Shown here: positions 6,161-18,195 of the stretch, piece after piece | Numbering within the stretch: the first letter of the stretch is position 1 | How the letters are laid out: each line of letters starts with the position of its first letter | Origin: a virus | Taxonomy: Duplodnaviria; Heunggongvirae; Uroviricota; Caudoviricetes | Length of the DNA: 24,503 nucleotides | Strand: one strand, 5' to 3' | Virus record (IMG/VR): IMGVR_UViG_3300029551_000088 | Program-made: the position numbers and the translations under genes | Notes under the pieces: generated by a model | Seen by the model: only the letters and a program-made list of their open reading frames with translations | Database searches by the model: none | What the model was told of the DNA's origin: nothing

Positions 6161-7184
<1,024 letters not shown>

Positions 7185-7547
7185 GGTAATATTAAATCGG
7201 AACATTTACATCGCGGAATGTAAAATTTAAATAAAAAGGACTCTTCCATGAGCCAAAATTCCTGAAATCTTAAGGGTAAGATAAAAGGTCTTAATCAGAA
7301 TGACACGTTATTATTAATAAATAAAGCTATTCTTTCATTGCTGTGTTTTTCTTTACAAAAGTAATCCTTGCTATGGGTGGTTAATCATGCGTTAATGGTG
7401 TTCTGGTTTGTTACAAATTTATCTGAAGCAGTCATTGTTATAATTTTATTATTTGTACCTCTTGAGATTTCCTTGTTGGTTTTTCTCTCTGATATTTTTT
7501 TTCGGACCATTCTGCCCAAGGGCTAATTTCTTCAAAAGGTAATAATT

Positions 7548-7760
7548 ATGTCTAACAAAATGACTGGTTTAGTGAAATGGTTTAACCCTGAAAAAGGTTT
7601 TGGTTTCATCACGCCGAAAGATGGCAGCAAAGATGTGTTTGTCCATTTCTCAGCAATTCAGAGCAACGATTTCAAAACATTAACTGAGAATCAGGAAGTT
7701 GAATTTGGTATTGAGAACGGACCTAAAGGTCCTGCCGCTGTTCATGTAGTGGCGCTTTGA
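7548..7760 (+). CDS. cspI: cold-shock protein CspI-like (70 aa)
   Basis: [70 protein letters not shown]; long AT-rich 5' leader (7185-7547). Confidence 0.9.
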
Positions 7761-7964
7761 GGTAGACAATATTACAAACCATATTCACTTTAGATGCCCG
7801 TGTTGTCATGGTTCCCAGTATAGAACATCATCTTTTGATGTTTCTGACATGAATCCTTTCGGGGCAAAATGTATCTTTTGTAAATCAATGATGATTACAT
7901 TTGATAATATTTCACAATACTTAAATGCCAGCCGTCTGTCGTTGGATTTAAAAAAGTGAAAATG

Positions 7965-7987
7965 AAGGCTCCTTCGGGAGCTTTTTT
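7965..7987 (+). terminator. rho-independent terminator
   Basis: Hairpin GCTCC-TTCG-GGAGC followed by TTTTTT. Confidence 0.6.
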
Positions 7988-8031
7988 GCTTGGTATCTAT
8001 TCGATGGATACTCACATACTACGGTAACATC

Positions 8032-8262
8032 ATGAAAAAAATCATAGTTTTTTTTAACTCTGAACCAGCAGTGGTAGTGCCAGCGATGACTGGAGTTAAC
8101 ACCATCATGCGTGAATATCCAAATGGCGAAAAAACACACCTTACTGTAATGGCCGCAGGGTTTCCATCTCTGACCGGAGATCATAAAGTCATTTATGTAG
8201 CCGCGGATCGACATGTTACTTCAGAAGAAATTCTGGAAGCAGCAATAAGGCTCTTGAGTTGA
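8032..8262 (+). CDS. hypothetical protein (76 aa from ATG 8032)
   Basis: Track ORF begins at a TTG (7990); the first ATG gives MKKIIVFFNSEPAVVVPAMTGVNTIMREYPNGEK.... No family recognised; ribosome-binding site weak. Confidence 0.35.
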   Translation: MKKIIVFFNSEPAVVVPAMTGVNTIMREYPNGEKTHLTVMAAGFPSLTGDHKVIYVAADRHVTSEEILEAAIRLLS

Positions 8263-8433
8263 TTTGATGCTATTGTATTGATAATTCAGGAAAATTCTCT
8301 TTGTCTGTTTGTGTAAAATTTAGACTATCGTATGTTGATTATTGCGATGTTTCATCTTATCTTTTACACGTTTGCACCATATAATCGACTTACTGTGTAA
8401 CTGGAAAGTCATAACAGACTAAAAGAGGAAATG

Positions 8434-8607
8434 ATGAATATTGAAAACTTAAAAACAAAAGCAGAAGCAGATATTTCTGAATATATAACAAAAAAAATTA
8501 TTGAACTTAAGAAAAAGACCGGGAAAGAAGTTACCAGTATTCAGTTTACCGCACGGGAAAAAATGACGGGTCTTGAAAGCTATGATGTCAAGATTAATTT
8601 AATCTGA
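8434..8607 (+). CDS. gnsB: GnsA/GnsB-family small protein (57 aa)
   Basis: Hand translation MNIENLKTKAEADISEYITKKIIELKKKTGKEVTSIQFTAREKMTGLESYDVKINLI resembles E. coli GnsB as I recall it; AGAGGA ribosome-binding site; below the 60-aa cutoff of the ORF track. Confidence 0.75.
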   Translation: MNIENLKTKAEADISEYITKKIIELKKKTGKEVTSIQFTAREKMTGLESYDVKINLI

Positions 8608-8758
8608 TGTATTCAATAATAAAATTTATCCATAAACCTCGTTTTTACGGGGTTTTGTTATATTTGAATGGTTCCGAATATCTAAATCACAATTGTTGAT
8701 GGTTTTTATTAAACCAATGCAGTCCGGCTCAGGAGTGAGAGAAGCCGGACGTTATGGT

Positions 8759-9169
8759 TTAGCGTGGTAAGATCTGTGTAGTTTTCTGGATGCTTTCAGT
8801 AAATAGTAATGAGTTATCAAAGGCATAGTAATATCTTTGGTGTTCCTGGATATTTGTAACCCATCGGAAAACTCCTGCTTTAGCAAGATTTTCCCTGTAT
8901 TGTTGAAATGTGATTTCTTTTGATTTCAACTTATTATAGGAGGTCTCTATAAGATGTTTGTTTCTGGAGAATTTAACATTTACAACCTTTTTGAGTCCTT
9001 TTACTAACACTATGTTGTCGTTTTCTAACACAATGTGAATATTATCTGTGGCTAAATAGTAAATATAAAGTGAGATATTGTGACGTTTTAGCTCAGAATA
9101 AAATAATTCACAGTTTAAATCTTTACGCACTTGATCGAATATTTCTTTAAAAATGGCAGCCTGAGCCAT
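8759..9169 (-). CDS. ydfO: DUF1398-family protein (YdfO-like, 136 aa)
   Basis: [47 protein letters not shown]...; start chosen at the ATG with GGAAGG ribosome-binding site, giving 136 aa. Confidence 0.7.
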
Positions 9170-9469
9170 TGGTAAACCTTCCATGTGATACGATGGCGCG
9201 TAGTTTGCATTATCGTGTTTATTGTTTTAATCTGGTCTGACCTCTTTGTGTTTTGTTGATGATTTATGTCAAATATTAAGCCTGTTTTTAATGAATAGTG
9301 TTGATTGCGTAACAAAATTGAGCCTTGCTGGCATCCAGGAGGGATATGCAACCGACAGATGTATGTAAGGTCGATGTACTCAAACTTTCATACTTTTCCT
9401 CTTTTATGCAGTAAGATTTGAAGTAATATTTTAACCGCTAGATGACGAGCAAACGCATGGAGCGACAAA

Positions 9470-9676
9470 ATGAATAAAGAACAATCTGCTGATGAACTCT
9501 CGTTGGATCTGATTCGTGTAAAAAATATGCTTAATAGCACCATTTCTATGAGTTACCCGGATGTTGTAATTGCATGTATAGAACATCAGGTGTCTCTGGA
9601 AGCATTCAGGGCAATTGAGGCAGCGTTGGTGAAGCACGATAAGAATTCGAAGGATTATTCCCTGGTGGTTGACTGA
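9470..9676 (+). CDS. hypothetical protein (68 aa)
   Basis: ATG preceded by GGAGCG; lies between the accessory cluster and cos. No family recognised. Confidence 0.35.
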
Positions 9677-10000
9677 GCACCATAACTGCTAATCATTCAA
9701 ACTATTTCACCTGTGACAGAGTCAATATCGCATTCTGTCACTGTCAGGCTAATACAGAGCTGCAATTCAACTACTGCAATGTCCTCGTAATTAGGTGAAT
9801 TTACAATATCGTCCTGTTCGGATGCCGGCTGCATTGCTGAAGATGAGGCATTTATGGTTCGCATATTTTCCCCTCATGCTCGTCAGTCCTGTGCGTAGGA
9901 AGAAACAGGACACTCACACTAATTTGTGTGGGCATGCTGTGATGTCCTTCTGAATTATTCCTATGCCATTATGTAAAGCGCTGTATCAGATGCTCGTCAC

Positions 10001-10238: not shown

Positions 10239-10733
10239 ATGGATCGAGAGTTAAAAAATCTGACGCTGAATATCAGTCAACTGGCGGCATTGTCAGGTGT
10301 ACATCGCCAGACTGCTGCGGCAAGGCTGCAAAATCTACCCGTTGCAGGGGGGCATGAAAGCAACCTCAAGCTTTATCGGGTGGTTGATATTGTGTCGGCA
10401 TTTCTGGCATTACCACCGCCGGTTGCAGAAGGCGAAATGGACGCGCATGAGCGCAAAGCCTGGTATCAGTCTGAACGTGAGCGTCTTAAGTTCGAACAGG
10501 AAACGGCACAACTCATTCCGGCCAGTGATGTCAGACGGGAGTTTGCCATCTGGGCAAAAGCGGTCGTGCAGGTGCTGGAGACATTACCGGATATTCTTGA
10601 ACGTGACTGCGGTCTGCAGCCTGCCGCTGTGAGCCGTGTTCAGTCCATTATTGATGATCTGCGCGATCAGATAGCCCTGCGGGTGACTGAAGCAGGTGCG
10701 GATGATGAGGAGGAATTACAGCAGGAGGAGTAA
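10239..10733 (+). CDS. terminase small subunit (Nu1-like, 164 aa), acidic C-terminus
   Basis: First gene after cos; stop overlaps the large-terminase start (TAATG); N-terminal region (LNISQLAALSGVHRQTAAARL) reads like a helix-turn-helix DNA-binding segment. Confidence 0.75.
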   Translation: MDRELKNLTLNISQLAALSGVHRQTAAARLQNLPVAGGHESNLKLYRVVDIVSAFLALPPPVAEGEMDAHERKAWYQSERERLKFEQETAQLIPASDVRREFAIWAKAVVQVLETLPDILERDCGLQPAAVSRVQSIIDDLRDQIALRVTEAGADDEEELQQEE

Positions 10734-11896
10734 TGCTGAATCAGGAAACCGCAAAGGCAGCACGAACCGATTCAGGTTATATCCTTCGCGCACCGAGACG
10801 AATGCGGGTTGCTGATGCCGTTGCTCAGTATATGCGGGTGCCTATGGGGGCAGGGAACTCAGTCCCGTGGGATCCGCTGGTGGCACCGTATGTTATTGAG
10901 CCTATGAACTGCCTGGCCTCGCGTGAATACGACGCAGTGATATTTGTTGGCCCGGCACGAACCGGCAAGACTATCGGCCTGATTGACGGCTGGGTGATTT
11001 ACAACGTGATTTGCGATCCTGCTGATATGCTGATCATTCAGATGACGGAGGAAAAAGCCCGCGAACACTCCAAAAAACGACTCGCCAGAACGTTTCGCGT
11101 CAGCCCGGAAGTGGTCAGTCGCCTGAGTCCGAACAAAAATGACAACAACGTTTATGACAGAACATTCCTTGCTGGCAACTACCTGAAAATCGGCTGGCCG
11201 TCAGTCAATATCATGTCTTCATCAGATTATAAATGCGTGGCGCTGACGGATTATGACCGTTTTCCGGAAGATATTGATGGTGAGGGGGATGCCTTCTCTC
11301 TTGCCTCAAAACGTACCACCACATTTATGTCCAGTGGTATGACGCTGGTGGAGAGTTCCCCCGGCAGGGATGTGAAGGATGTGAAATGGCGACGGACTTC
11401 ACCGCATGAGGCTCCACCAACCACGGGGATCCTGTCGCTCTATAACCGTGGCGATCGCCGTCGCTGGTACTGGCCCTGTCCACACTGTGGTGAGTATTTT
11501 CAGCCCTGCGGCGATGTGGTTGCTGGTTTCCGTGATATTGCCGATCCTGTGCTGGCAAGTGAGGCGGCTTATATTCAGTGTCCTTCCTGTTCAGGACGGA
11601 TTTTGCCTGAACAAAAACGCGAGCTGAACGGACGTGGGGTCTGGTTACGGGATGGTGAATCCATCAATGCAGATGGCAGTCGTTATGGTGATCCCCGGCG
11701 TTCACGTATTGCGTCATTCTGGATGGAGGGTCCGGCAGCTGCTTATCAGACACTCTCGCAACTCGTTTACAAACTGCTTACTGCAGAACAGGAATACGAG
11801 ACAACCGGAAGTGAAGAGACACTCAAGACGGTTATCAATACCGACTGGGGATTACCTTATCTTCCCCGCGCCAGCATGGAGCAACGAAAAAGTGAA

Positions 11897-14304
<2,408 letters not shown>

Positions 14305-14305
<1 letters not shown>

Positions 14306-15813
14306 TGGCAATTCTTGATGATGTGATTGGCGTTTTTTCACCAGGATGGAAAGCGGCAAGGCTGCGTTCCCGTGCGGTGATCCAGGCTTATGAGGCCGTA
14401 AAAACGACACGGACACACAAAGCCCGGCGGGAAAACCGAACTGCCGACCAGTTAAGCCAGTACGGGGCCGTGTCGTTACGTGAGCAGGCCCGTTACCTTG
14501 ATAACAACCACGATCTGGTTATTGGTGTATTTGACAAGCTGGAAGAACGGGTGGTGGGGAAAAACGGGATTATTGTCGAGCCACATCCGGTATTACGCAA
14601 TGGGGCCATTGCCCGTGATCTGGCAGCGGAGATACGCACCCGATGGAGTGAATGGTCTGTCAGTCCGGAAGTCACCGGGCAGTTTACCCGTCCGATGCTG
14701 GAACGTCTGATGCTGCGTACCTGGCTGCGCGATGGTGAGGTGTTTGCCCAGATGGTTTCCGGGCGCATAAACAGCCTGACGCCTTCTGCCGGTGTTCATT
14801 TCTGGCTGGAGGCGCTCGAGCCGGACTTTATTCCCATGACCAGTGATGAGAGCAACAGGCTGAATCAGGGCGTGTTTGTTGATGACTGGGGGCGTCCCGA
14901 AAAATATCTGGTGTATAAAAGCCGTCCCGTATCCGGGCGGCAGATGGAAACCAAAGAAGTGGATGCAGAGCGAATGCTGCATCTTAAATTTGTTCGCCGT
15001 CTGCACCAGATGCGCGGGACGTCTTTGTTGTCCGGTGTGCTGATCCGCCTCAGTGCCCTGAAAGAGTATGAAGATTCTGAGCTGACTGCAGCAAGGATCG
15101 CCGCTGCTCTGGGGATGTACATCCGGAAAGGCGACGGGCAGAGCTATGAACCGGATGGTAATGGCAGCAAGGAGAATGAACGCGAGCTTACCATTCAGCC
15201 AGGCATTATTTACGACGATCTGAAACCCGGCGAAGAAATCGGAATGGTGAAGTCGGATCGTCCCAATCCTAACCTTGAAACTTTTCGTAATGGTCAGTTG
15301 CGTGCCGTGGCGGCGGGCAGTCGTCTGAGTTTTTCCAGTACGGCACGCAACTATAACGGCACTTACAGCGCCCAGCGTCAGGAGCTGGTTGAATCCACTG
15401 ATGGCTACCTGATCCTGCAGGACTGGTTTATTGGTGCCGTCACCCGCCCGATGTATCGTGCCTGGCTGAAACAGGCTGTGGCATCCGGTGTTATCAGGCT
15501 ACCCCGCGATCTTGATCGTTCTTCACTGTATACCGCGGTGTATTCCGGACCGGTGATGCCGTGGATTGACCCTGTTAAGGAGGCTGAGGCCTGGAAAATT
15601 CAGATTCGTGGTGGAGCGGCGACAGAATCAGACTGGGTACGTGCAGGTGGTCGTAATCCGGATGATGTCAAACGTCGGCGCAAGGCCGAAATTGATGAAA
15701 ACCGCAAGCTGGATCTGGTATTTGATACCGATCCGGCCAGTGATAAAGGAGGCAGCAGTGCCGCAACGAAACGACAGGAGCCGCAGCACACCGACGACCA
15801 GTCCGAAGAATAA
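14305..15813 (+). CDS. portal protein (lambda gpB-like, 502 aa)
   Basis: Position after W; about 500 aa; translationally coupled start (TGATG). Track ORF 14233 is an upstream in-frame extension. Confidence 0.8.
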
Positions 15814-15826
15814 TTCCTGGTTCAGG

Positions 15827-17785
15827 ATGCAGGCAGGTCACCAGAGTGACGCGGATATTTATATTTATGACGAGATTGGTTTCTGGGGTGTTACAGCGAA
15901 GCAGTTTATCAGTGATCTGAATGCACTGGGCGATATCACCCACATTAATCTCCATATTAATTCACCGGGTGGCGATGTCTTTGAAGGCATCGCCATTTTT
16001 AATGCACTGAAAACACATGGTGCGTCCATTACCGTTTATGTCGACGGTGTGGCGGCGTCAATGGCGTCGGTCATTGCGATGGTGGGAAACCCGGTCATTA
16101 TGCCGGAAAACTCCTTCATGATGATTCATAAACCATTTGGCTTTACGGGCGGTGATGCGGAGGACATGCGCACCTATGCCGACCTGCTCGATAAAGTTGA
16201 GGCGGTTCTGTTACCCGCTTATGCACAGAAAACCGGGAAAACCACCGATGAAATTGCTGCCATGCTGGCGGATGAGACCTGGATGTCCGGTGCCGAATGT
16301 CTGGCACAGGGATTTGCTGATCAGGTGACACCAGCCGTTAAGGCAATGGCATGTATTCAGTCAAAACGTACAGAGGAATTTAAAAAGATGCCGGAATCCA
16401 TTCGAAACATGATTACTCCGCCACGCAACAGTGCTCCACGCGTACAGGATGATGAACCTGCAGCCTCCCGGACGCCAGTGCAGGCAGCAGCACCCGTGGT
16501 GGATGAAAACAGTATCCGTGCGCAGGTACTGGCAGAGCAAAAAGCGCGTGTAAACGGTATTAATGATCTGTTTGCCATGTTTGGCGGGCGTTATCAGACG
16601 CTGCAGGCCCAGTGTCTTGCCGATCCTGAATGTTCGCTGGAGCAGGCCCGTGAAAAGCTGTTGAACGAGATGGGGCGCGAGTCCACGCCATCCAATAAAA
16701 ATACCCCGGCTCATATTTATGCCGGTAACGGTAATTTTGTGGGGGACGGGATTCGCCAGGCGCTGATGGCGCGTGCCGGATTTGAAAAAACCGAACGTGA
16801 TAATGTCTACAACGGGATGACCCTGCGTGAATATGCCCGTATGTCACTAACTGAACGGGGTATTGGGGTTTCCGGTTATAACCCGATGCAGATGGTCGGT
16901 GCGGCGTTCACACACAGTACGTCTGACTTCGGTAATATTCTGCTGGATGTTGCGAACAAAGCCATTCTGCAGGGCTGGGAAGATGCCCCTGAAACCTATG
17001 AACAGTGGACGCGGAAAGGTCAGTTGTCTGATTTTAAAATTGCCCATCGTGTGGGTATGGGGGGCTTCAGTGCTCTACGTCAGGTGCGTGAAGGGGCGGA
17101 ATATAAATACGTCACCACCGGAGATAAACAGGCCACTATTGCACTGGCGACCTATGGCGAGCTGTTCAGTATCACCCGTCAGGCCATTATCAATGATGAT
17201 CTGAATATGCTGACCGATGTCCCGATGAAACTGGGCCGTGCGGCGAAATCCACTATTGCCGATCTGGTTTATGCCATTCTGACGTCTAACCCGAAAATCT
17301 CCACAGATAATGTAAGTCTGTTCGATAAAGCGAAACATGCAAACGTACTGGAGAGCGCTGCAATGGACGTGGCATCGCTGGATAAAGCCCGCCAGTTGAT
17401 GCGCGTTCAGAAAGAGGGGGAGCGTCATCTGAATATTCGTCCTGCGTTCGTACTGGTACCGACGGCGATGGAGTCTGTTGCTAACCAGGTCATTCGCTCC
17501 TCAAGTGTCAAGGGGGCTGACATTAACGCCGGTATTATTAACCCGGTGAAAGATTTTGCGACCGTTATTGCAGAGCCTCGTCTTGATGATAACAGCCAGA
17601 CCACCTTCTACCTGGCTGCGTCAAAAGGCTCCGATACGATTGAAGTGGCTTATCTCAACGGTGTGGATACGCCATATATTGATCAGATGGAGGGCTTCAG
17701 TGTGGATGGCGTGACAACGAAAGTGCGTATTGACGCCGGTGTCGCGCCAGTTGATCACCGCGGTCTGGTGAAATGTACGGCGTAA
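15827..17785 (+). CDS. ClpP-like (S14) prohead serine protease fused to an HK97-fold major capsid protein (652 aa)
   Basis: N-terminal region reads as a ClpP fold (DIYIYDEIGFWGVTAKQF...INSPGGDVFEGIAIFNALK...ASMASVIAMVG...MIHKP); central Ala/Gln-rich linker; C-terminal about 350 aa typical of a lambdoid major capsid protein. Start set at the first ATG after the portal stop. Confidence 0.75.
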   Translation: MQAGHQSDADIYIYDEIGFWGVTAKQFISDLNALGDITHINLHINSPGGDVFEGIAIFNALKTHGASITVYVDGVAASMASVIAMVGNPVIMPENSFMMIHKPFGFTGGDAEDMRTYADLLDKVEAVLLPAYAQKTGKTTDEIAAMLADETWMSGAECLAQGFADQVTPAVKAMACIQSKRTEEFKKMPESIRNMITPPRNSAPRVQDDEPAASRTPVQAAAPVVDENSIRAQVLAEQKARVNGINDLFAMFGGRYQTLQAQCLADPECSLEQAREKLLNEMGRESTPSNKNTPAHIYAGNGNFVGDGIRQALMARAGFEKTERDNVYNGMTLREYARMSLTERGIGVSGYNPMQMVGAAFTHSTSDFGNILLDVANKAILQGWEDAPETYEQWTRKGQLSDFKIAHRVGMGGFSALRQVREGAEYKYVTTGDKQATIALATYGELFSITRQAIINDDLNMLTDVPMKLGRAAKSTIADLVYAILTSNPKISTDNVSLFDKAKHANVLESAAMDVASLDKARQLMRVQKEGERHLNIRPAFVLVPTAMESVANQVIRSSSVKGADINAGIINPVKDFATVIAEPRLDDNSQTTFYLAASKGSDTIEVAYLNGVDTPYIDQMEGFSVDGVTTKVRIDAGVAPVDHRGLVKCTA

Positions 17786-17871: not shown

Positions 17872-18195
17872 ATGGCAAAGAATTTTGTAGAAGAAGGAAA
17901 AACGGTGGCGATTGTTGCCAGTGCAGCCATCAGCAGCGGAGATCTGGTGCAGGTGGGCGATGTTTTTGCGGTGGCGCTGACCGATATTCCACAGGGTGAA
18001 ACAGGCGACGGCATGACCGAAGGTGTGTTTATGCTGCCTAAGCTGAAAACGGATGACATGAAAACGGGTAAGAAGGTTTATCTGAAGTCCGGAAAAGTTC
18101 AGCTGACTAACAGCGGCTCTGATCCGCTGGTCGGGGTTGTCTGGGCAGATGCCGGAACCAGTGCAGAAGAAGTGCCGGTAAAACTCAATGTCTGA
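17872..18195 (+). CDS. putative head-associated protein (decoration/DUF2190-like, 107 aa)
   Basis: Position immediately after the capsid gene; GGAGA ribosome-binding site; small Gly/Val-rich protein. Family assignment is uncertain. Confidence 0.45.
   Translation: MAKNFVEEGKTVAIVASAAISSGDLVQVGDVFAVALTDIPQGETGDGMTEGVFMLPKLKTDDMKTGKKVYLKSGKVQLTNSGSDPLVGVVWADAGTSAEEVPVKLNV

Follow-up and report, generated by a model that had tools for sequence, protein, structure and literature searches.

The DNA analysed here, a 24,503-nucleotide window from a tailed-phage genome (IMG/VR record IMGVR_UViG_3300029551_000088), raises the question of how one gene can take the place of separate prohead protease, scaffold and capsid genes, and of how such a gene sets its protease-to-capsid ratio. 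The open reading frame as first delimited (15827..17785, ATG start, 652 aa; all features given here lie on the plus strand, and residue numbers follow this 652-aa form) consists of 652 codons and a stop without internal stop or frameshift, which bears out the single fused ORF of the initial annotation. The proposed ATG start did not hold up. The frame is already open from 15566, and ATG 15827 has a near-absent ribosome-binding site (duplex with the anti-Shine-Dalgarno sequence, anti-SD, of -2.2 kcal/mol), whereas the GTG at 15758 is preceded at a distance of 5 nt by the Shine-Dalgarno sequence AAGGAGG (15746..15752; anti-SD duplex of -11.6 kcal/mol). This site lies inside the 3' end of a lambda-family portal gene (14305..15813; Pfam Phage_portal_2, E 7.1e-82; PGAP coordinates transferred from L001), and a start at GTG 15758 makes the fusion ORF overlap the last 56 nt of the portal gene up to its stop at 15813. 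RefSeq/PGAP uses the same GTG for the gene of strain 118UI, which is 100% identical, and the AAGGAGG-N5-GTG arrangement recurs in mEp213. Translation of the fusion gene likely begins at GTG 15758, and the full-length ORF (15758..17785) would then encode 675 aa that comprise a ClpP-like protease, a linker, a scaffold-like domain and the major capsid protein.

The N-terminal part of the protein is a ClpP-like (MEROPS S14-type) prohead serine protease domain (aa 8-170; 15848..16336), to which Pfam CLP_protease aligns at aa 23-168 with an E-value of 4.6e-36. Across 116 homologues of 34-59% identity, the predicted catalytic residues Ser78 (16058-16060) and His101 (16127-16129) never vary, and the position of the acidic third residue, Glu150 (16274-16276), is occupied by E or D in 110 sequences; the motifs GxAAS-M and MIH-P line up with the catalytic motifs of ClpP. 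Membership of the cellular ClpP family was not found: TIGR00493 reached 60 bits against a cut-off of 308.6, all PRK ClpP models stayed far below their cut-offs, and the ClpP profile match begins only at about ClpP position 57, leaving the N-terminal part of ClpP uncovered. The domain has a ClpP fold and is not a ClpP orthologue. Pfam and NCBIfam searches of the fusion protein found no Peptidase_S78 domain, and NF045541, which describes S78-type fusions, aligned only to aa 197-649 with 402 bits, below its cut-off of 525.

AlphaFold2 with an alignment of 84 sequences (41-96% identity) modelled the protein with a mean pLDDT of 85.5, versus only 35.5 with a shallow alignment of 18 sequences (75-100% identity), and confined disorder (pLDDT <50) to residues 199-224 and 287-301. 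The first of these segments corresponds to linker 1 (aa 199-225; 16421..16501), which is rich in Pro, Ala, Val and Arg, predicted to be disordered and hypervariable in both sequence and length (mean identity 0.15 and gap fraction 0.35 in the 84-sequence alignment), and the second to linker 2 (aa 287-303; 16685..16735), likewise predicted to be disordered. Between them lies a conserved domain of three helices (aa 226-286; 16502..16684; helices at 227-250, 257-265 and 271-285, pLDDT ~93), in which R241 is invariant or nearly so, and an LGxxxxP motif with nearly invariant G283 and P288 precedes linker 2. This domain, a candidate scaffold analogous to the HK97 delta domain, has a homologue in Faecalibacterium phage FP_Epona, where it forms the N-terminal extension of an unfused capsid gene, the central and capsid domains making up one gene beside a separate S78 protease gene. 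It is also common to the S78-type fusions, as the NF045541 match indicates, and Rhodobacter RcMeacham has an S78 protease fused to the same capsid module. The remainder of the protein is an HK97-fold major capsid protein domain (aa 304-652; 16736..17782), with Pfam Phage_capsid_4 matching its core at aa 357-649 (E 1.4e-54). In one frame, a ClpP-like prohead protease with Ser78, His101 and Glu150 is thus followed by a small helical scaffold-like domain and then by an HK97-fold capsid protein, with a flexible linker between each part and the next.

Domain searches of the two ends, which the initial annotation had proposed as a check, returned both of the folds that it had predicted, a ClpP-like serine protease at the N-terminus and an HK97-fold capsid protein at the C-terminus. 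Its suggestion that an Ala/Gln-rich middle acts as scaffold survives in part: a scaffold candidate is indeed present, but at aa 226-286, while the linker itself is confined to aa 199-225, a hypervariable and disordered stretch, which leaves the conserved domain as the better candidate for this role. The maturation cut that frees the capsid protein would most likely fall in or near linker 2.

A fused protease-scaffold-capsid gene is an already known type, the Gifsy-2 type, with a curated and named family of its own, rather than a novelty. The protein scores 986 bits against NCBIfam NF045540 (scaf_prot_MCP1; cut-off 475), with residues 9-651 covering profile positions 2-651 of 652, and it agrees with that family in every respect tested, namely score and coverage, a ClpP-related protease with its Ser and His, and an HK97-fold capsid domain. 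The name of the family, 'ClpP-like prohead protease/major capsid protein fusion protein', is exactly the RefSeq name of the identical gene, and PHROG 133 is matched with E=0. Effantin et al. (2010, Virology 402:355) reportedly gave a structural description of the Gifsy-2 'tripartite capsid gene' (STM1033/STM1034.3n), with proteolytic release of the mature capsid protein, a T=7 shell and a trimeric decoration protein. Other literature describes the Gifsy-2 gene as one in which prohead protease and coat protein are fused (PMC12315714), and the capsid as T=7 (PMC8814770), its 3-fold axes each occupied by a trimer (PMC8538268). The gene in the window is 69.6% identical to that of Gifsy-2 over its full length and shares its three-part layout, all in one ORF between lambda-type portal and decoration-protein genes, and the two loci agree in their succession of large terminase, small ORF, lambda-type portal, fusion gene, a gene of ~107 aa, gpZ, gpU and gpV. 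They differ in that the window gene resides in another host and another lambdoid background (a Qin-like E. coli prophage) and has a linker 1 of different sequence and length. Self-processing is the accepted reading of the Gifsy-2 gene, and this precedent supports the same reading here.

Head-tail joining genes had been expected directly downstream of the fusion, but the next gene (17872..18195, 107 aa) instead encodes a capsid cement or decoration protein (Pfam Phage_cement_2, E 9e-21). Gifsy-2 has a gene of the same size at this position, and the syntenic genes of F10, mEp213, S1 and FP_Epona are annotated as 'head decoration'. This protein is the functional partner of the capsid protein.

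As a whole, we consider a Gifsy-2-type tripartite capsid gene with the following route of assembly and maturation to be the best explanation of the locus, with a probability of roughly 85%. Translation would start at GTG 15758, coupled to that of the portal gene, and a second in-frame start at ATG 16388 may add a 465-aa precursor devoid of protease, such that only some subunits would carry the enzyme. The capsid domains would form a T=7 prohead on the portal, with their N-terminal extensions pointing inward, like the delta domains of HK97. The tethered proteases would thereby come to lie inside the shell, where they would cut off the extensions, most likely in or near aa 287-303, and would in addition break down the scaffold and themselves, so that a mature capsid protein of ~350 residues remains. 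After DNA packaging and expansion, the Phage_cement_2 product would stabilise the shell. In this scheme domain identities and folds, catalytic residue conservation, synteny and family membership were observed in the present analysis, and T=7 geometry, trimeric decoration and processing would carry over from the Gifsy-2 precedent.

The same logic is found in more distant systems. HK97 gp4 and gp5 share with the window gene a scaffold-like N-terminal extension on an HK97-fold capsid protein that is removed by an encapsidated serine protease, and the gene order portal, protease, capsid is the same (PMC10275583). Unlike the S78 enzyme of HK97, the protease in the window is ClpP-like (S14-type) and covalently joined to the capsid precursor, and the capsid of the window phage is predicted to be stabilised by a cement protein. 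The fusions of family NF045541 and of the Rhodobacter RcC-cluster phages follow the same three-part logic with the same Phage_capsid_4 capsid module, and Microbacterium cluster EE, a group of small-genome actinobacteriophages, shares the protease-scaffold-capsid layout, though the layout only (PMC7302621). All of these fusions differ from the window gene in having an unrelated protease family at their N-terminus, and the fusion thus arose more than once.

The fusion itself being ordinary, given the Gifsy-2 precedent, its own NCBI family name and its occurrence in ~40% of complete E. coli genomes, the point of interest lies in the protease-to-capsid ratio, on which the putative second start bears. 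Just past the protease domain, the in-frame Met188 is encoded by ATG 16388-16390, preceded by GAGGA (16373-16377) and a 10-nt A/U-rich spacer. This putative internal initiation region (16373..16390) presents the hallmark of a nested gene, an in-frame start codon that lies beyond the protease domain and has a ribosome-binding site of its own, and its anti-SD duplex of -6.0 kcal/mol is comparable to that of real starts in the operon (cement, -6.6; gpZ, -7.1). Nine homologues from phages and prophages, the most distant with an identity of ~57%, all have Met188-Pro189. An AGGA or GGAG core is found 9-10 nt upstream of the junction Met in 28 of 28 distinct junction sequences, among which the residue encoded at the core varies between E, Q, K and G; codon -5 is GAG, CAG, AAG or GGA and never GAA, CAA or AAA. 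The anti-SD duplexes of junction Met codons average -6.3 kcal/mol versus -1.7 at 250 other in-frame ATGs (Mann-Whitney p 6.6e-8, with related sequences treated as independent).

For the wider family, every ATG in the linker was listed for each locus. A single universal start position had to be discarded, as the Met188 column is conserved only within an enterobacterial/Pseudomonas subgroup; the candidate starts fall instead into two classes, a junction Met and a linker Met. Likewise, a rule that takes the first in-frame ATG after an F..xP motif misidentified the Met in several distant homologues (L128, L131, L138). Among 116 distant relatives, 94 have Met in a single column of the linker, which is hypervariable elsewhere, a further 6 have Leu there and 4 have Val; a junction or linker Met occurs in all 84 sequences of the alignment. 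Among 16 loci with nucleotide sequence, 13 have an SD-like site upstream of the linker or junction ATG, against 12.7% of background ATGs, a comparison that ignores kinship. The residues upstream of the linker Met are rich in E, K and G, which could partly reflect preferences at the protein level. Gene callers place the start of two proteins (P0226 and P0166) exactly at the junction 'MP'; P0226, which sits on a 1.5-kb contig truncated just upstream, was dismissed as evidence of a split gene. The same internal-start signature is seen in the S78-type fusions of Stenotrophomonas S1 and RcMeacham.

These patterns suggest a nested scaffold-capsid product of 465 aa translated from ATG 16388 (16388..17785). 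The 'fusion' would then be a nested in-frame gene pair in which the protease rides on a minority of subunits and the short precursor builds most of the shell, a device that would recur throughout the family and, independently, in S78-type fusions; we regard the chances that this is so as about even. Lambda C/Nu3, HSV-1 UL26/UL26.5 and gp17/gp17.5 of the archaeal virus HFTV1 are organised in such a manner, each with a long product that contains the protease and a short in-frame product that shares the C-terminal part incorporated into the procapsid (bioRxiv 10.64898/2026.09.13.751334). The pattern around ATG 16388 agrees with such an organisation, with the difference that the shared part is a separate scaffold in those systems and would here be the scaffold plus the capsid protein itself. 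Should the internal start be functional, one gene would supply the protease carrier as well as the bulk capsid precursor, and annotation as a single CDS would overlook the more abundant product. It would also add another nested-gene case to those of tailed phages, archaeal tailed viruses and herpesviruses, and extend the principle of C/Nu3 and UL26/UL26.5 to genes whose shared part is the capsid protein itself. Of the two starts, the full-length one is served by the stronger ribosome-binding site, so that no ratio of long to short product can be predicted.

That difference in strength (-11.6 versus -6.0 kcal/mol) also speaks for a true single-product polyprotein, in which every subunit would bring its own protease and scaffold, no internal start would function, and the Met and purine-rich codons would be a relic of an ancestral junction or a protein-level motif, for example for processing or recognition. 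The tether clearly matters, as the fusion is conserved in >150 divergent protein clusters (clustering at 50% identity), and neither an internal start nor a short product of such genes was found described in the literature searched, where the HFTV1 preprint was the one relevant find, a search that did not extend to the primary Gifsy-2 paper. Moreover, by a rough estimate 415 copies of the ~33-kDa extension fill only about one third of the interior of a T=7 prohead, so that an internal start is not physically required. A relic, however, should decay, whereas the ATG and SD core persist within a hypervariable segment, and conservation acts at the nucleotide level, with AGGA or GGAG kept in all junctions while the residue changes. 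Proline is a poor P1' residue for serine proteases, and its usual presence after the Met argues against a cleavage motif; the recurrence of the signature in S78-type fusions likewise weighs against the single-product reading. We hold this reading to be possible but somewhat doubtful.

Two further explanations concern the gene as such and are far weaker. The N-terminal domain might be a ClpP-fold module without protease activity, structural or for targeting, with maturation by a host protease or none at all, as the third triad residue is Glu where cellular ClpP has Asp. The invariance of Ser78 and His101, the prevalence of an acidic residue at position 150 and the alignment of both motifs with those of ClpP tell against this, as do a match to NF045542 ('head maturation protease, ClpP-related') above its cut-off and the fact that no other protease gene was found in the window between the portal and tail genes, making an inactive module very improbable. 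The long ORF might also be an artefact or a decayed gene, adjacent protease and capsid genes having been joined by sequencing error or recent mutation in a defective prophage. The host element is a lambdoid (Qin-like) E. coli prophage that is indeed damaged elsewhere, its large terminase gene being split by an IS element, and the VT1-Sakai homologue of the fusion gene is itself interrupted by IS629. But 1378 E. coli records match the gene at ≥99% identity, and the ORF is therefore not a sequencing artefact; all 12 among the matches listed are identical (100%) over the full length and annotated as a single CDS. Of 5426 complete E. coli genomes, 2125 contain matching DNA, the isolated phages cdtI, mEp460, Tritos, Ayreon and phi458 encode proteins of ≥99% identity to this one, and the same single ORF occurs in the isolated plaque-forming phages cdtI, mEp460, mEp213, Gifsy-2, F10 and MD8. 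Together with the divergent clusters and the NCBI-curated family, these matches refute an artefact or decayed gene, to which we give virtually no credence. A scan of IMG/VR at first returned 80 near-identical E. coli loci and yielded diverse ones when seeded with a distant member. One apparent natural split into ClpP and capsid genes (L177, GCA_000755365.1) was rejected, as it looks like the result of frameshift errors in a draft genome; a clean case of separate genes is that of FP_Epona, though its protease is of the S78 type. The copy in the window may never be used, because the terminase gene of its prophage is split. Nearly identical genes occur in phages that can be grown (mEp460, cdtI, Gifsy-2), which makes the idea of an internal start cheap to test.

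The initial annotation had proposed that the prohead protease and major capsid protein are encoded as a single fused ORF, and we found that window positions 15827-17785 (+) indeed comprise 652 codons and a stop in one open frame, with the frame itself open from 15566. DNA matching this fusion ORF is present in 2125 of 5426 complete E. coli genomes, with at least 99% identity in 1378 E. coli records, and the 12 matches listed show 100% identity across their full length and carry a single-CDS annotation in every case (12/12). Because the ORF recurs in E. coli genomes and is annotated there as a single CDS, an assembly artefact is excluded. The originally proposed start codon, ATG 15827, fared less well, as it has a near-absent ribosome-binding site (anti-SD duplex of -2.2 kcal/mol). 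By contrast, GTG 15758, which is the RefSeq start and yields a 675-aa product, has AAGGAGG upstream at 5-nt spacing (-11.6 kcal/mol) and is probably the real start; residues are numbered here from ATG 15827. When begun at GTG 15758, the gene overlaps the portal gene (stop at 15813) by 56 nt, and the location of both the GTG and its AAGGAGG site within these last 56 nt (15758-15813) suggests that portal and capsid-gene expression may be translationally coupled. The 23-residue N-terminal extension encoded at 15758-15813 is highly variable among homologues.

The predicted ClpP-like N-terminus and C-terminal capsid protein were confirmed by Pfam matches to CLP_protease (aa 23-168, E 4.6e-36) and Phage_capsid_4 (aa 357-649, E 1.4e-54) and by NCBIfam NF045540 (scaf_prot_MCP1), which aligns from end to end, scoring 986 bits (cut-off, 475). 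The score for NF045542 ("head maturation protease, ClpP-related") likewise exceeds its cut-off and PHROG 133 is matched with E = 0, whereas scores against the cellular ClpP models fall far under their cut-offs; the protease domain has a ClpP fold, yet is no ClpP orthologue. An AlphaFold2 model (mean pLDDT 85.5; alignment of 84 homologues, 41-96% identity) predicts a protease domain (aa 8-170), two short helices (aa 180-196), a disordered first linker (aa 199-224), a three-helix domain (aa 227-285, pLDDT about 93), a disordered second linker (aa 287-301) and a capsid domain (aa 304-652) that includes a 28-residue helix (460-487). Fold comparison with Foldseek confirmed ClpP. The ClpP motifs AAS78M and MIH101KP are present, no substitution of Ser78 or His101 occurs among 116 aligned homologues (34-59% identity), and Glu150, which aligns with the catalytic Asp of ClpP, is E in 101/116 and D in 9/116 of them. 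Overall, the initial interpretation of the ORF was essentially right.

This type of fusion gene is already known, named and common, with the full-length ClpP-scaffold-capsid architecture found in more than 150 clusters at 50% identity. The ORF's product shares 99% identity or more with its counterparts in the isolated phages cdtI, mEp460, Tritos, Ayreon, phi458 and HannyBb, and identity declines to about 77% in VT1-Sakai and several Stx2a-converting phages, 74% in mEp213 and LLS, 72% in Fels-1, 69.6% in Gifsy-2 and about 57% in the Pseudomonas phages F10 and MD8. The Gifsy-2 capsid gene was studied by Effantin et al., who are reported to have described a ClpP-like N-terminus, a C-terminal capsid protein and a central domain of ~200 residues that may serve as scaffold. 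Gifsy-2 shares the gene order of the window, and its capsid is T=7 (PMC8814770). Protease-scaffold-capsid fusions have also been reported in small-genome actinobacteriophages (PMC7302621), and in Rhodobacter RcC-cluster phages the capsid module found here is fused to an S78 protease of the HK97 type. Unlike the one-frame fusion ORF, Faecalibacterium phage FP_Epona has an S78 protease gene and, after it, a distinct 530-aa gene whose residues 43-519 align with aa 184-649 of the fusion protein. Because FP_Epona encodes this region unfused, and S78 and ClpP fusions both exist, we infer that the central and capsid domains constitute an HK97-gp5-like unit joined to two unrelated protease families. 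At a homologous locus in a draft genome (GCA_000755365.1, BBMQ01000056.1, 1857-3832), ClpP-like and capsid genes are called apart; given frame changes relative to homologues, at the junction and in the protease body, the separate calls probably reflect sequencing errors or decay, not a natural split. In the Stx1 phage VT1-Sakai, the fusion gene (AP000400.1 23248-26507, 77.6% identity) is broken by IS629.

The domain identities and folds, conserved catalytic residues, two predicted disordered linkers and an adjoining cement gene are established features of this system, and a conserved helical domain accompanies the capsid domain across relatives. By analogy with HK97 and Gifsy-2, the N-terminal extensions would be oriented to the prohead interior, the tethered proteases would switch on once assembly is done, cut off the extensions and then degrade themselves, and the cement protein would bind following expansion. 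The leading candidate region for the maturation cut is the predicted disordered stretch aa 287-303, which is preceded by an LGxxxxP motif with nearly invariant G283 and P288. This L-G-x4-P motif (aa 283-288, window 16673-16690) is common to all 84 aligned homologues and could mark where the maturation cut falls or where the protease docks.

Directly after the protease, the fusion ORF contains an in-frame ATG at 16388 (Met188) with an upstream GAGGA and an A/U-rich spacer, and its anti-SD duplex (-6.0 kcal/mol) compares with -6.6 and -7.1 for the real starts of the cement and gpZ genes in the same operon. Nine phage and prophage homologues, with identities as low as about 57%, all have Met188-Pro189. 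Across 28 distinct junction sequences from all loci collected, codon -5 is GAG (18), CAG (4), AAG (4) or GGA (2) and never GAA, CAA or AAA (0/28), codon -4 is always GAN, and an AGGA or GGAG core is found in 28/28. Since this core is constant while the encoded residue varies between E, Q, K and G, the junction is conserved as nucleotides, not amino acids. The duplex at the junction Met averages -6.3 kcal/mol versus -1.7 for 250 other ATGs in 12 ORFs (p 6.6e-8, indicative only, with relatedness ignored).

More distant family members have lost a Met at this exact column. One column of the otherwise hypervariable first linker is Met in 94/116 sequences (Leu 6, Val 4), with E/K/G-rich residues directly upstream, and in the 84-homologue alignment 37 sequences have the junction Met and 47 the linker Met, such that one or the other occurs in 84/84. 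An SD-like site precedes the linker ATG at 13/16 loci with DNA versus 12.7% of 307 background in-frame ATGs (Mann-Whitney p 1.7e-5, likewise indicative only, with relatedness ignored). The S78-type fusions of Stenotrophomonas S1 and RcMeacham (n=2) have the same ATG and SD where protease meets linker.

These patterns make an internal start at ATG 16388 probable, and their simplest reading is a nested gene that would encode two products in one frame, a long one that carries the protease and a 465-aa scaffold-capsid one, with parallels in lambda C/Nu3, HSV-1 UL26/UL26.5 and the recently reported HFTV1 gp17/gp17.5 (bioRxiv 10.64898/2026.09.13.751334). Against this, the ribosome-binding site is stronger at the upstream start, and a rough estimate indicates that 415 extensions could physically fit, leaving no need for a short form. 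Of all the features of the fusion gene, only the conserved signal for internal initiation may be new; phages with nearly identical genes can be cultivated, which makes it directly testable.

The window is a Qin-like lambdoid prophage, and positions 2566-24503 are 99.99% identical to the E. coli 118UI prophage, one insertion excepted. A small terminase-like gene, the large terminase, a small ORF and a Lambda-family portal gene precede the fusion ORF. The head-tail joining genes had been placed directly after it, which overlooked a 107-aa capsid decoration/cement protein gene at 17872-18195 (Phage_cement_2, formerly DUF2190; E 9e-21), whose product RefSeq still names just 'DUF2190 family protein'. 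A small gene with a Pfam 'Gifsy-2' match (Phage_attach weakly), gpZ, gpU and gpV homologues and the remaining tail genes follow. The head and tail genes are intact. A 1257-bp IS3-family insertion sequence (11899-13155; ends TGTAGTGG...CCACTACA; orfA 12773-13120 and orfB 11907-12953, both on the minus strand) is flanked by a 4-bp AATT target duplication (11895-11898 and 13156-13159). With its large terminase gene divided by this element into N-terminal (10733-11914) and C-terminal nuclease (13056-14096) parts, the prophage copy is probably incapable of DNA packaging. Positions 7001-10000 have a G+C content of 35-39% versus 51-57% in the structural genes and, by collinearity with 118UI, hold the cold-shock-like genes and small accessory genes (cspI, ynfN, gnsB, DUF1398) that separate the lysis cassette from the terminase genes.
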